Shown: positions 5,200-10,824 of the stretch, piece by piece
How positions within the stretch are numbered: the first letter of the stretch is position 1
How the letters are laid out: every line of letters starts with the position of its first letter
NCBI RefSeq assembly: GCF_000172995.2
Contig: NC_014729.1
Location: forward strand, 2,730,001 to 2,762,000
Length of the DNA: 32,000 nt
Origin: Halogeometricum borinquense DSM 11551
Lineage (GTDB): Archaea; Halobacteriota; Halobacteria; Halobacteriales; Haloferacaceae
Direction of reading: 5' to 3'
Program-made: the position numbers and the translations under genes
Notes under the pieces: generated by a model
The model's input: the letters and a program-made list of their open reading frames with translations, nothing else
What the model was told of the DNA's origin: nothing
Databases searched by the model: none

Positions 5200-6006
5200 A
5201 TGATGAAGGTTCTCGTGACCGTAAAAGAGGTCGCAGAAGTCGAAGACGACTTCGAGATAGACGGCCTCGACGTCGACCCGCGGTACCTCGAGTACGACCT
5301 GAACGAGTGGGACGAGTACGCCGTTGAGACGGCGGTCCAACTCGCTGAAGCGTCCGACGAGGACGTCGAAGTCGTCTCCGCAACGATCGGCCCGGAGCGG
5401 AGCGAGGAGACCATCCGCATGGCGCTCGCGAAAGGCGTTGACCGCGCGGTCCGCGTGTGGGACGACGACGTGGAGGCCGCCGAGTTCCTCGACGTGGACT
5501 CGAAAGTCCGCCTCCTCGAAGCCGTCGTCGAAGAAGAAGACCCGGATATCGTCCTCACGGGCGTCCAAGCCCACGACACCGGATTCGGTGCGACGGGTGT
5601 CGCCCTCGCAGACGCCATCGACTTCGAGTGGGGTGCCGTCGTAAACGACCTCGATACCGAGGGCGTCCTCGAAGACGGTGTGGCGCGTGTCCACCGCGAA
5701 CTCGAAGGCGGCGTAGAGGAGCTCACCGAGATCGACCTGCCCGCCGTGTTGACCATCCAGACCGGTATCAACGAACCGCGCTACGCTAGCCTCCGCGGTA
5801 TCCGGCAGGCGCAGTCGAAAGAAATCGCCCCGAAAACGCTCTCCGACCTCGGTCTCGACCACACCGCCGTCGAGAGCGAACTGTTCTTGACCGATATGTA
5901 CGAACCCGAGACGGAATCCGACGCAACGTACTTCGAGGGTGACGCAGGAGAGCAAGCCACCCAACTTGCGACGGCCCTGCGCGAGAAGGGGGTGGGTGCG
6001 GAATGA
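5200..6006 (+). CDS. etfB: Electron transfer flavoprotein, beta subunit
   Basis: MMKVLVTVKEVAEVEDDFEI...EYDLNEWDEYAVETAVQL...LTGVQAHDTGFGATG is the typical EtfB pattern. It overlaps the etfA start by 4 nt. Confidence 0.9.
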   Translation: MMKVLVTVKEVAEVEDDFEIDGLDVDPRYLEYDLNEWDEYAVETAVQLAEASDEDVEVVSATIGPERSEETIRMALAKGVDRAVRVWDDDVEAAEFLDVDSKVRLLEAVVEEEDPDIVLTGVQAHDTGFGATGVALADAIDFEWGAVVNDLDTEGVLEDGVARVHRELEGGVEELTEIDLPAVLTIQTGINEPRYASLRGIRQAQSKEIAPKTLSDLGLDHTAVESELFLTDMYEPETESDATYFEGDAGEQATQLATALREKGVGAE

Positions 6007-6956
6007 GCGATATTCTCGCTGTCGCCGAACACCGCCGCGGCGACCTCCGCGACGTGAGTTACGAACTCGTGACTGCGGGCCGCGAACTTGCCGAGGCGAC
6101 GGGCGGCGACCTGCACCTCGCGATCATCAGCGGAGACGTGGACACGTTCGCCAGTCATCTGAACCTCGACGGCGTCGATACCATCCACACCGTCGAATAC
6201 GGCGAAGAGTTCAACCACGACGTGTACACGCAGGCGGCGTGCGCCCTCACAGAGGAACTGGATCCCCAGTACGTCTTGACGCCGAACTCCGTGAACGGTC
6301 TCGACTACGCACCCGCAGTGGCGAACCGTCTCGGCCTCCCCGTCGTCTCTGACGCAATCGGCATGGCGTTCGATGGCGGACTGACCGTCACGCGCGAGAT
6401 GTACGGATCGAAAGTCGAGACGACGATCGAAGTCGATTCCGAGCGCGCGGTCGTCACCATCCGCGGCGGCGAGTGGGAACCGACCGAGGCGGACGGCGAC
6501 GCCGACGTAGCGGTCTTCGACTTCACGCCCGACGAATCCGAAATCGGCTCCCGTGTCACCGGATTCGAAGAAGTCGGCGGCGGCGACGTGGACATCACCG
6601 AAGCCGACGTACTCGTCTCCGTCGGACGAGGTATCGAAGAAGAGGAGAACATCGAGCTCGTCGAGCGACTCGCCGACGCCCTCGGTGCGACGCTGTCGTC
6701 CTCGCGCCCCATCGTTGACAACGGCTGGTTACCGAAGAACCGGCAGGTCGGTCAGTCCGGGAAAGTCGTCACGCCGGATGTGTACATCGCCGTCGGGATC
6801 TCCGGTGCGGTACAGCACGTCGCCGGGATGAAAGGCTCCGAAACCATCGTCGCCATCAACACGGACCCGAACGCGCCGATCTTCGACATCGCCGACTACG
6901 GCGTCGTCGGCGACCTGTTCGACGTCGTTCCGGAACTCATCGACGAGTTCCAGTAG
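6003..6956 (+). CDS. etfA: Electron transfer flavoprotein, alpha subunit
   Basis: The C-terminal FAD-binding signature is present: [44 protein letters not shown]...[13 protein letters not shown]. The last 30 nt including the TAG stop belong to the 97-bp tandem repeat. Confidence 0.9.
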
Positions 6957-7247
6957 CGGCTTTTTGGTCCAGATTTTTGCGGACGCGAACCTGTGAGCGT
7001 CCGGAAAAAGGTGGTCGCACGTTGTTCCGGAACTCATCGACGAGTTCCAGTAGCGGCTTTTTGGTCCAGATTTTTGCGGACGCGAACCTGTGAGCGTCCG
7101 GAAAAAGGTGGTCGCACGTTGTTCCGGAACTCATCGACGAGTTCCAGTAGCGGCTTTTTGGTCCAGATTTTTGCGGACGCGAACCTGTGAGCGTCCGGAA
7201 AAAGGTGGTCGCACGTTGTTCCGGAACGCATCGACGAGTTCCAGGAG
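6927..7247. repeat. 97-bp tandem repeat: three identical copies (6927-7023, 7024-7120, 7121-7217) plus a diverged partial fourth copy (7218-~7247)
   Basis: Read directly from the sequence. Each unit is the last 30 nt of etfA (gttccggaactcatcgacgagttccagtag) followed by a 67-nt core (cggctttttggtccagatttttgcggacgcgaacctgtgagcgtccggaaaaaggtggtcgcacgtt). The fourth copy has t->g at 7228, and TAG->GAG at 7245. Confidence 0.95.
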
Positions 7248-7315
7248 ACGAAATCGAGTGGTGAGAACGCACCGTTTCGGAACCTCTTTTGTCGCTGCAT
7301 CCTGAGCCACGGGTA

Positions 7316-8158
7316 ATGGAGTATCTGGAGCGTCGGGTGTCGATGGTCGATGACCGCCTCGAAGCGGTCATCGACGCGGTTGATCCACCCGAACTGTCGG
7401 ACGAACTCGCCCACGTGGCGCTCGCAGGCGGTAAGCGCGTCCGCCCAGCGGTGACGATTCTCTCCTGCGAAGCCTGCGGCGGCGACGCCGACGCAGCGGT
7501 TGACTTCGCCGTCGCCATCGAGTTGGTCCACAACGCCTCGTTGGTTATCGACGACATCATCGACCGATCGGACATCCGTCGTGGAACGCCGAGCGCGTGG
7601 GCAGAGTACGGGTACGGACCCTCCATCATCGCCTCGGACGGCCTCCTCGGCGAGGCGTTCGCACTCCTGTCAGTTGACGACCACGCGATGCAGATTGTCG
7701 CGGAGTCGATGGTCGAACTCGGTGAGGGGGAGGCGACGGAGTTGGTTGCACGGCCGACGAACGAAGCCGAGTACATGGAACTTGCCCGACGGAAGACGGG
7801 CGCACTGTTCCGTGCAGCAGCAGAACTCGGAGCCGTTGCCGCCGATGCCGACCCGTTTACGGTTGAAGCGTTCGGCGAGTACGCAGAACGCGTCGGCGTC
7901 GCCTTCCAGATACGCGACGACGTGCTGGATGCGACCGCCGACGCCGACGAACTGGGCAAACCAACCGGGCAGGACGAACAGATGGACCGCCCGTCAGTGG
8001 TGCAGGTGACGGACCTGACGCCTGTCGAAGCGAACCAGCGTGCGCGAGAGCAATCGGATAAAGCACTCGACGCACTCGATACCGCGAAGTTGTCGGAAAC
8101 GGACTCGCTCGGCTACCTCCGTGACCTCGCGGAGTTCGTGGTCGTCCGCGAACGCTGA
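7316..8158 (+). CDS. idsA: Polyprenyl (geranylgeranyl/farnesylgeranyl) diphosphate synthase
   Basis: Internal ATG (MEYLERRV...). First Asp-rich motif LVIDDIIDRSDIRRG and second motif FQIRDDVLD. The symbol is family-level only, and chain length cannot be read from the sequence. Confidence 0.88.
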   Translation: MEYLERRVSMVDDRLEAVIDAVDPPELSDELAHVALAGGKRVRPAVTILSCEACGGDADAAVDFAVAIELVHNASLVIDDIIDRSDIRRGTPSAWAEYGYGPSIIASDGLLGEAFALLSVDDHAMQIVAESMVELGEGEATELVARPTNEAEYMELARRKTGALFRAAAELGAVAADADPFTVEAFGEYAERVGVAFQIRDDVLDATADADELGKPTGQDEQMDRPSVVQVTDLTPVEANQRAREQSDKALDALDTAKLSETDSLGYLRDLAEFVVVRER

Positions 8159-9647: not shown

Positions 9648-10643
9648 ATGATTTCGAAGGGCTGTGAGCAGTGCGCCATGGGAGGGAAAATGGTGCTGTT
9701 CGTCTACGGGTACTGCGATCAGCGCGATTGTTTCTACTGCCCCCTCGGCGAGAACCGTAAGAACGTCACAGACGTGTACGCTAACGAGCGATTGGTCGAG
9801 TCCGACGACGACGTTATCTCCGAGGCCAAGCGGATGGACGCGCTCGGCACGTCCATCACCGGCGGTGAACCGCAAGAGGCTCTCGATAAGACGTGTCACT
9901 ATCTCTCGCTTCTGAAAGACGAGTTCGGAGAGGACCACCACACGCACCTCTACACGGGTATCACGGGCGGCCGCGAGAACATGCGCCGCCTTTCGGAGGC
10001 GGGACTGGACGAGATTCGCTTCCACCCGCCGTACGAACTGTGGGGCGACATGCACGGAACCGAGTGGGAAGAGATACTCTATATTGCCCGCGAGGAAGGT
10101 CTCACGCCCGCGTTCGAGATTCCCGGCATCCGGGCCGAACAGGAGTTCCTCGACTTCCTCGACGAGGGAGCCGCGGAGTTCTGTAACGTCAACGAGTTCG
10201 AGATGAGCGACGGCAACTACCGCCGGATGCAGGAGGAAGGCTTCGAACTCCAAGACGGGCACATGTCGGCCGTTGACGGATCCAAGGACGCTATTCTCGA
10301 CGCGATGGCCGACCACGAACGCGTCTACTTCTGTACCTCTGTCTTCAAAGATGCCGCCCAACACCGCAACCGCCTGAAGCGGATGGCGAAGAACATCCGT
10401 CGTCCGTTCGATGAAGTAACCGACGACGGCACCCTCGTCTACGGGAAAACGTGGGTTACAGAGGACGATTTGCAGGCACTTGGCGTTCCCGAGGAGTTCT
10501 ACACCGTGAAATCCGACCACGTTGAAGTCGCGTGGTGGCTGCTAGAGGAAATGATAGAGGAAGGTGACGTGCCGGAGGGTGAAATCGTCGAGCAGTATCC
10601 CACCGTTAACGGGACTGTCGTCGAACGTACTCCGTTGGCCTGA
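9648..10643 (+). CDS. Radical SAM protein (archaeal COG2108-type)
   Basis: Internal ATG (MISKGCEQCAMGGKMVLFVYGYCDQRDCFYCPLGENRKN). It has a Cys-rich N-terminus with a CxxxCxxC-like cluster plus GGEP. The upstream part of the track ORF is basic and unlikely to be coding. Confidence 0.85.
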   Translation: MISKGCEQCAMGGKMVLFVYGYCDQRDCFYCPLGENRKNVTDVYANERLVESDDDVISEAKRMDALGTSITGGEPQEALDKTCHYLSLLKDEFGEDHHTHLYTGITGGRENMRRLSEAGLDEIRFHPPYELWGDMHGTEWEEILYIAREEGLTPAFEIPGIRAEQEFLDFLDEGAAEFCNVNEFEMSDGNYRRMQEEGFELQDGHMSAVDGSKDAILDAMADHERVYFCTSVFKDAAQHRNRLKRMAKNIRRPFDEVTDDGTLVYGKTWVTEDDLQALGVPEEFYTVKSDHVEVAWWLLEEMIEEGDVPEGEIVEQYPTVNGTVVERTPLA

Positions 10644-10734
10644 CGGCGCTTTTTGGTCCAGCTTTTGCAAGCGAGCGGAGCGAGCGCAGTAAAAGGTGGA
10701 ATGGCACGGTCGTCGAACGTACTCCGTTGGCCTG
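10617..10734. repeat. Exact 27-bp direct duplication of the radical-SAM gene 3' end (10617-10643 and 10708-10734) flanking a 64-nt core related to the etfA repeat core
   Basis: gtcgtcgaacgtactccgttggcctga occurs twice, 91 nt apart. The core 10644-10707 shares CGGC..CTTTTTGGTCCAG.TTTTGC at its 5' side and AAAAGGTGG....GCACG at its 3' side with 6957-7023. Confidence 0.85.
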
Positions 10735-10824
10735 AGTTTGGACATTTGCGATTGGTTTCTGCTGAAATCTCTCGTACTCCGGGAGGCTCACAACCGACCA
10801 GCCGTGACGACAGCCGAGTCCCGG

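Follow-up and report, generated by a model that had tools for sequence, protein, structure and literature searches.

REP and BIME repeats are mobilised by RAYT transposases, which are of the Y1 HUH type, and roles as terminators or as stabilisers of mRNA 3' ends have been reported for them. Integrative elements leave 3'-end duplications at their integration sites, and Rhs/CDI toxin genes have displaced 'orphan' C-terminal modules. The IS1634/IS1549 family of insertion sequences is common in Euryarchaeota, and the mechanism by which it duplicates its target is not known (PMC2266710). Haloquadratum carries the PATEs and SMRs (HqIRS families), transposase-free repeats of 50-200 bp, some of them 52 bp, that are derived from IS200/IS605 (PMC3119063).

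Here we describe a short element, E, that lies directly behind the ends of two genes in the window, by which we mean the whole stretch of 32,000 nt from Halogeometricum borinquense DSM 11551 that was analysed. We call the end of the intact gene A and the displaced copy of it behind E A'. As in the integration-site and Rhs/CDI cases, an intact gene end stands upstream and a displaced partial copy downstream, displaced ends can occur in series, and the similarity stops near the end of the gene. Unlike those cases, which involve kilobase elements with integrases or toxin-immunity cassettes, the copies at E are only about 60-110 non-coding nt apart.

Two gene ends in the window

The two loci, etfA and a radical-SAM gene, comprise the following features.

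6003..6956, plus strand: etfA gene (Pfam PF01012, PF00766; product 100% identical to EtfA of H. borinquense DSM 11551)
6919-6956, plus strand: etfA gene-end copy A0, 38 nt, within the gene
6957..7014, plus strand: etfA element copy 1, 58 nt
7015..7053, plus strand: etfA gene-end copy A1, a hybrid whose 5' part is as in the last copy and whose 3' part is as in the gene
7054..7111, plus strand: etfA element copy 2
7112..7150, plus strand: etfA gene-end copy A2, identical to A1
7151..7208, plus strand: etfA element copy 3
7209..7247, plus strand: terminal displaced etfA gene-end copy A3, with CTC>CGC and TAG>GAG, followed by native downstream DNA
9648..10643, plus strand: radical-SAM / DUF8061 gene, 331 aa from ATG (Pfam PF04055; PF26257 in the draft of the same strain)
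10608-10643, plus strand: upstream copy A, the final 36 nt of the radical-SAM gene, with TGA at 10641-10643
10644..10699, plus strand: E copy, 56 nt, directly 3' of the radical-SAM gene
10700..10735, plus strand: displaced gene-end copy A', 36 nt, which starts right behind GGTGG and closes exactly at a second TGA

At the radical-SAM locus the 27-mer GTCGTCGAACGTACTCCGTTGGCCTGA occurs exactly twice, at the gene end (10617-10643) and at 10709-10735, and the chance expectation for such exact repeats in 32 kb is about 3e-10. The preliminary description of this DNA had reported a 27-bp duplication of the gene end around a 64-nt core; the duplication is real and exact, while its end lies at 10735, not 10734, and the spacer separating the exact copies is 65 nt. 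Moreover, the duplication is longer than its exact part. The nine nt ahead of the second 27-mer read AAT GGC ACG as compared to AAC GGG ACT in the gene, and because they differ just at three third positions, all of them synonymous, we take the duplication to be 36 nt and E to be 56 nt long. This copy of E has the layout CGGCGC-T5-GGTCCAG-C-T4-GCAAGCGAGCGGAGCGAGCGCAGT-A4-GGTGG, in which GCAAGCGAGCGGAGCGAGCGCAGT is the variable centre, and the base of its hairpin is formed by CCA:TGG plus T4:A4. The DNA that follows A' was considered as the remnant of a second element and this candidate was dropped (z = -1.0, not significant).

The etfA locus is a tandem array of 3.3 copies of a 97-bp unit (6922-7244), in which three 58-nt relatives of E each have a 39-nt gene-end copy behind them. 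The preliminary description had missed this array. The last copy, A3, is degenerate and the middle copies, A1 and A2, are hybrids of the first and the last, the product to be expected if unequal crossing-over had taken place between flanking copies. A draft assembly of the same strain (DSM 11551) has a single etfA unit, so either the copy number varies or the assembly collapsed the array. The proposed kinship of the two cores is borne out: CTTTTTGGTCCAG and AAAAGGTGG are common to both and in the window are confined to these loci, with four exact matches each where 0.42 (CTTTTTGGTCCAG) and 0.07 (AAAAGGTGG) are expected by chance, and an nhmmer profile from other genomes picks out only these four copies in the window.

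A family of hairpins at gene ends

An exact-pattern scan of one genome per species for TTTTTGGTCCAG-N15-45-AAAAGGTGG (the strict motif, T5GGTCCAG...A4GGTGG) matched at least 120 stretches of DNA, most of them located at the 3' ends of genes, in agreement with the earlier idea that the two loci belong to one repeat family. Among the matches listed, about 107 are from Halobacteria of many genera, including Haloferax, Natrinema, Halorientalis, Halococcus, Haloarcula and Halarchaeum, about 10 bacterial matches are due to chance, and three are genuine copies in two non-halophilic archaeal MAGs, namely a Woesearchaeota MAG and an unclassified archaeon. Viral contigs scanned with the strict motif held no true copy (two chance matches, both in low-GC contigs), and one consensus copy of E compared by BLAST with plasmids gave no match. 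There are also subtypes of E with other boxes (GGCCGAG...GGTCG, GGTGCAG...GGTGC and GGCGTAG...GGTAC). The E copies of one genome have their apical stem sequence in common and Halobellus ordinarius, for instance, has about five near-identical copies at different loci; this likeness indicates proliferation or homogenisation of E inside a genome.

The family is apparently undescribed, with no Rfam family and no paper found. Rfam 15 at the gathering score, applied to the whole window, returned only two tRNAs and no E family, and a permissive Rfam search (E-value up to 10) over 6850-7350 gave no match. A sequence and keyword search of a library of papers returned only primers and unrelated repeats; E is absent from the Halobacterium and Haloquadratum mobile-element papers, and its motifs are absent from the supplementary sequence tables of PMC3119063. 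All-against-all clustering of the ORFs at 120 E loci showed no recurrent neighbouring transposase or protein family: the clusters were housekeeping families and one small uncharacterised protein, and no RAYT-like gene stood next to the copies.

E reads, in order, as a T-run, GG(T/C)NNAG, another T-run, a palindromic centre that varies, an A-run, and finally GG with the complement of NNA. The whole folds as a long imperfect hairpin, built from a closing triplet, a conserved 2x2 mismatch (GA opposite GG), the pairing of T-run and A-run, and the variable centre, which often has a GAA-type loop and tandem G-A pairs. In many copies another hairpin, whose stem varies and whose GAGCGNAGCGAG loop is conserved, lies upstream and is followed by the first T-run. 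The preliminary description saw no terminal inverted repeats; we note that the arms of the hairpin (CCAGAT5... / ...A5GGTGG) are inverted repeats and that they covary. The closing triplet is CCA/TGG, CGA/TCG or GCA/TGC in 21/21 relaxed-pattern matches, GTA/TAC and TGA/TCA occur in other copies, and the apical stems show many compensatory changes, so that the covariation once suggested as a check of the hairpin is indeed present. When folded as RNA, the gene-sense strand is the more stable in 114/115 copies, by a mean of 5.0 kcal/mol, with 55 G-U pairs as compared to 16 in the complement, although this asymmetry stems partly from common conserved bases and the 115 copies cannot be counted as independent. 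Even so, it suggests a gene-sense strand that is single-stranded, be it RNA or DNA. Taken singly, the window's two copies have modest fold z-scores (-1.4 to -2.8).

The genomic setting of E is strand-biased. The DNA 120-330 nt upstream is coding in the direction of the element 44 times and in the reverse direction 14 times, whereas downstream there is no bias (28 vs 28). A co-directional gene end lies at most 200 nt upstream of 55/90 copies, and in 12/90 the stop codon of a convergent gene is found 0-6 nt from the hairpin foot. The radical-SAM copy has a sense-strand T5 (10650-10654) and then T4, and on the other strand only T4; the etfA element has sense-strand T5 runs at 6961 and 6974 and, in all three copies, a T5 on the minus strand (7005-7009, 7102-7106 and 7199-7203). 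The archaeal oligo-T signal, at least five T on the sense strand just past the gene, is thus present in the window's copies, and in Haloferax a T5 stretch terminates 95% of transcripts in vivo (PMC7237163). Probably, E lies in the 3' UTR of the upstream gene and serves as an RNA hairpin plus oligo-T transcription terminator. Since the A-run of E is a T-run when the other strand is read, E probably terminates the convergent gene too, and we infer that it is a compact terminator or 3'-end hairpin that is often bidirectional. The mobile terminator put forward in the preliminary description fits both the T-runs on the two strands and the 44:14 orientation bias.

Gene-end copies and their origin

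Duplication of the gene end is a trait of the family. A flanking direct repeat scoring at least 18 was found at 53/91 elements (58%) as compared to 1/273 control positions (0.4%), so that the preceding sequence recurs downstream of more than half of the copies; about 40% of copies are without A'. The duplications range from 13 nt (tRNA genes) to about 150 nt, and in about half of the loci, both window loci included, they end exactly at the stop codon. A' begins 0 nt past GGTGG in 43/71 junctions. The 3' boundary of the insert is exact at the hairpin foot, whereas its 5' boundary varies between copies, and an insertion of 1-2 nt of pyrimidine recurs 3-5 nt past the foot. Genes duplicated recurrently across genera are etfA, radical-SAM, malic enzyme, IleRS, PheT and GatB/E, and citrate synthase, HisF, ornithine carbamoyltransferase and others are further recurrent hosts. 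The same anatomy of E plus duplicate is seen at tRNA genes on the opposite strand, and at some tRNA loci different elements follow one another, each of them bordered by a piece of the tRNA end. At some loci a second, sometimes different, element follows A', which would also fit tandem duplication or serial displacement. No conserved target motif was found in the gene upstream of the junction. Microhomology between the 3' tail of E and the gene upstream of the junction was absent (1.83/8 matches vs 2.11 in controls), and with it failed the prediction of a simple microhomology or template-switch model.

Filled and empty sites, which the preliminary description had proposed to look for among close relatives, exist within H. 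borinquense. In assembly GCA_040679015.1 the etfA stop codon is followed directly by GCGAAACCGAGTGGTGAG..., the DNA that in the window follows the last displaced copy (A3); this is a precise empty site, to which only whole units of E and gene end need be added to give the filled allele. The etfA gene of H. limi has two units, that of H. rufum has relics (a broken E and a decayed copy), that of H. pallidum has E and no recognisable gene-end copy, and the central stem of the etfA copies recurs in an E of Haloferax massiliensis. These occurrences mean that the etfA insertion is old, and the most plausible reading of the empty site is precise loss via the flanking repeats. Both H. borinquense strains have the radical-SAM E, which in one of them is cut in the loop and joined to a TnpB-like remnant; H. 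limi, H. rufum and H. pallidum lack it. In metagenomes, a downstream gene-end copy is found at 27 of about 77 orthologues of the radical-SAM locus, with at least seven junction classes and several E subtypes among them, and the junction class of the window occurs in distant lineages as well.

The displaced copies do not evolve as dead DNA. Across 57 loci, A and A' differ at 113 codons, 90 times synonymously and 23 times non-synonymously, with 15, 11 and 90 differences at codon positions 1, 2 and 3, and the stop codon is kept in A' in 46/46 cases. If the gene alone were constrained and A' drifted, an estimated 42% or so of differences would be synonymous; the excess over this value (binomial p = 3e-16) rules out A' as a neutrally decaying target duplication. 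A' copies track the lineage-specific amino-acid changes of their own gene, and many A/A' pairs are 100% identical, rare species-specific codons included. To judge by the arrays, the hybrids and the precise loss, A and A' keep exchanging sequence, also with other alleles and between lineages. Harmful changes in A' would then be exposed to selection, because exchange moves A' sequence into the gene, and continued exchange together with purifying selection would leave A' differing from the gene almost only synonymously.

The reading that we favour, with moderate confidence, is that E is a non-autonomous REP/MITE-like hairpin element and oligo-T terminator, the arrival of which duplicates the end of the target gene, and that the resulting repeats lead to arrays, loss and concerted evolution. 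As the anatomy of the copies shows, E comes with a direct duplication of 13-150 nt of its target. Where the duplication lies over a gene 3' end, the upstream copy leaves the gene intact and A' stands just past the hairpin foot; selection would retain those insertions whose duplication spans the stop codon. Recombination between A and A' then produces tandem arrays and precise losses, both of which are seen at etfA (3.3 units and the empty site, respectively). Target-duplicating insertion is favoured by the empty site, by the exact 3' boundary and by the serial tRNA cases, and the IS1634/IS1549 family provides a precedent for long variable duplications (8-514 bp; PMC2266710). Widely staggered cuts are a possible mechanism of arrival, and tandem duplication and the import of foreign modules may account for a share of the loci.

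Several observations sit uneasily with this preferred reading. No transposase was found, nor terminal inverted repeats that match a known IS, and the length of the duplication is too variable for an ordinary transposase. Target-duplicating insertion leaves the variable 5' boundary and the pyrimidine insertion past the foot unexplained, and a random staggered cut does not predict duplications that end at the stop codon, as about half of them do.

A bolder idea, to which we give a small but real chance, is that E represents a transposase-less mobile terminator, present across archaeal phyla, that spreads by a mechanism not yet described in prokaryotes. For instance, insertion might be coupled to the 3' end of a transcription unit; alternatively, the hairpin foot might be cleaved by a conserved host structure-specific enzyme. 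Either candidate would give an exact 3' end, a variable 5' end, long variable duplications and a preference for sites after stop codons and tRNA 3' ends, and each insertion would be reversible because the built-in duplication permits precise excision.

Alternatively, E might be an old resident terminator, with slippage or unequal recombination at the hairpin making a tandem copy of gene end plus E, and the distal E afterwards lost or decayed. Such a history would suit the continuum from full tandem arrays to A-E-A', the junction that is always at the hairpin foot, the second E or remnant found past A' in about half of the duplicated loci (z > 3, 46/92 rows), and the unequal crossover that does occur, as in the etfA array. 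However, most of the arrays inspected close with the partial unit A' and not with E (L041 and L063 are exceptions), and no trace of a second E follows the radical-SAM copy (z = -1.0) or the last etfA unit (z = -0.2). Moreover, the tRNA genes with serial elements have a separate tRNA-end duplicate for each of them, and the empty etfA site is the filled site minus exactly E and A. We regard a resident terminator as improbable, and the two independent local slippage events that had been considered for the window find no support.

A further proposal, which we likewise doubt, is that the gene end has been replaced. A foreign gene 3' end with its E would enter by homologous recombination within a conserved gene, and the hairpin foot would join illegitimately upstream of the resident stop codon, so displacing the resident end (and its own E if present). 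This would leave behind overwhelmingly synonymous A/A' differences and a similarity that often stops exactly at the stop codon, as are indeed seen. Some loci look like true replacement by a foreign module; at L174, for instance, A and an E of one subtype precede an A' that differs at six synonymous sites and has its own E, which is of another subtype. The occurrence of the window's radical-SAM junction class in distant lineages, together with its absence from three other Halogeometricum species, also speaks for such imports, but easy precise loss explains the patchy distribution equally well. Against replacement as the general origin are the many A/A' pairs that are fully identical down to rare species-specific codons, and it leaves the first arrival of E at a new gene unexplained.

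It is very unlikely that E and A' form a functional RNA, with E as a scaffold and A' as a gene-matching segment that would guide an RNA-guided protein or regulate the upstream gene. Although the gene-matching segment always begins at the 3' foot of a conserved, strand-specific hairpin and has long stayed similar to the gene, its sense orientation rules out pairing with the mRNA. The segment also ranges from 13 to 150 nt in length and lies behind two T5 runs, no protein gene is associated with it, some 40% of E copies do without it, in H. rufum and H. pallidum it has decayed or is missing, and one strain has lost E entirely.

That the duplicates are the attL/attR scar of an integrase-bearing element since deleted is effectively refuted: integrative elements do duplicate the 3' ends of tRNA and protein genes, and E also abuts tRNA 3' ends with short duplicates, but one and the same sequence of about 60 nt separates the duplicates of dozens of unrelated genes, the position of the junction varies even within one gene, and the scans of viral contigs (strict motif) and plasmids (one consensus copy) turned up no true copy. 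The site-specific recombination scar offered earlier as an explanation finds no support, the genes and junctions being far too many and too different. Two further candidates were rejected, namely a bulge-helix-bulge intron or translational bypass (no such motif on inspection, and repeat periods without a constant frame) and a diversity-generating retroelement (90/113 codon differences synonymous, and no reverse transcriptase among the neighbouring genes).

Comparison with described systems

If the favoured reading of E is correct, a large share of haloarchaeal gene-end intergenic DNA belongs to one conserved, unannotated element family, with consequences for the annotation of 3' UTRs and terminators and, because displaced gene ends resemble gene fragments, for the calling of pseudogenes. 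Every insertion of E would bring its own means of precise removal and of copy-number change. Assembly is affected as well, since contigs break at E repeats. The displaced gene ends represent a natural system in which to measure gene conversion and allelic recombination in polyploid archaea, and the boxes, kept exactly alike from Halobacteria to DPANN-type MAGs, suggest that E has a conserved partner protein or is mobilised by a new mechanism.

Like REP/BIME, Correia and ERIC repeats, E is short, non-coding, hairpin-forming and present in many copies. As with REP/BIME, it is an extragenic palindrome at gene 3' ends and between convergent genes, and mosaic, nested and clustered arrangements occur in both. 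Unlike REPs, which are species-specific, E has flanking boxes that are constant across an archaeal class and beyond; it is flanked by long gene-end duplications, and no RAYT-like gene adjoins its copies.

With MITEs, E has in common a small size, the lack of autonomy, internal inverted repeats, flanking direct repeats, and filled and empty sites. However, the duplication made by MITEs is a fixed 2-11 bp and that at E is a variable 13-150 nt, the 5' boundary of E varies while its 3' boundary is exact, and no parent IS with matching ends was identified. The direct repeats of IS1634/IS1549 are, like those of E, long and variable in length, but those elements are 1.5-2 kb with a transposase and we saw no sequence link. 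The PATEs and SMRs of Haloquadratum resemble E as haloarchaeal transposase-free repeats with near-terminal palindromes and nesting (PMC3119063); they are described as being without target duplication, in contrast to the 58% of E copies that have a flanking duplication, and whereas PATEs have a fixed left target of 4-5 nt, the left boundary of E varies and no conserved motif lies upstream of the junction. Integrase att sites lie in one specific target gene, and E is found at dozens of unrelated genes. What is unusual about E is that its boxes are conserved throughout a class and, it appears, between phyla, that its gene-end duplications are long, and that the displaced ends evolve in a coding-like manner.

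Junctions past the hairpin foot

We note that at many independent loci the displaced copy of the gene end, which lies just past the foot (3' end) of the hairpin element, agrees with the gene over the initial 3-5 nt, then carries an insertion of 1-2 nt, mostly C or T, and only then enters a long match. Examples of such junctions (L-numbers denote stretches of DNA from other assemblies or genomes that were compared with the window) are:

L032, L048, L081 and L015, junctions with the 1-2 nt insertion
Window 7015-7020, junction with the 1-2 nt insertion

The insertion is found at the same spot again in related lineages, and this recurrence suggests that cutting or repair takes place repeatedly just past the hairpin foot.

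Variation at the etfA and radical-SAM loci

At etfA the window has three element units (6922-7247) and the strain's draft assembly a single one (L001 10954-11053), a difference that represents either copy-number variation or, alternatively, assembly collapse and breakage at the repeat. The etfA stop codon is also the exact end of several short-read contigs (L002-L006).

In the second H. borinquense strain (GCA_040679015.1; L209 10349-10700) the element copy at the radical-SAM gene is truncated within its apical loop and fused to DNA coding for a TnpB-like zinc-ribbon remnant, the match to PF07282 (E = 4.5e-4) falling short of the curated cut-off. This locus lacks the DUF5518 and methyltransferase genes that DSM 11551 has.

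Small-protein loci and an inverted pair

The element also follows the gene for a small protein of about 112 aa, without a Pfam match and of unknown family, at at least five loci, several of which are paralogues within one genome:

L083 4298-4636, small-protein gene, then element
L021, L042, L085 and L090, the same arrangement

Short GCGG-type repeats lie between the stop codon and the element. Elsewhere, two element copies lie about 220 nt from each other and point in opposite directions (L008 7543-7893), so the arrangements of the element include clustered and inverted ones.

Non-halophilic archaea and tRNA ends

True element copies are contained in low-GC, non-halophilic archaeal MAGs:

L011 3989-4180, element copy, Woesearchaeota MAG
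L073 1099-1290, element copy, Woesearchaeota MAG
L061 502-700, element copy, archaeon MAG

The duplication spans 13 nt of a tRNA end in L073 and 48 nt of a gene end in L061. Read by eye, the element in the Woesearchaeota contigs adjoins an apparent intron-containing tRNA on the opposite strand, for which ARAGORN made no call; the apparent introns contain a similar T-run/A-run hairpin.

In two further stretches (L084 640-1050 and L099 3000-3400, the latter without any remaining intact tRNA) a tRNA 3' end occurs three times in succession, as copies or fragments separated by two different hairpin elements, in what looks like serial insertion at one and the same tRNA end.
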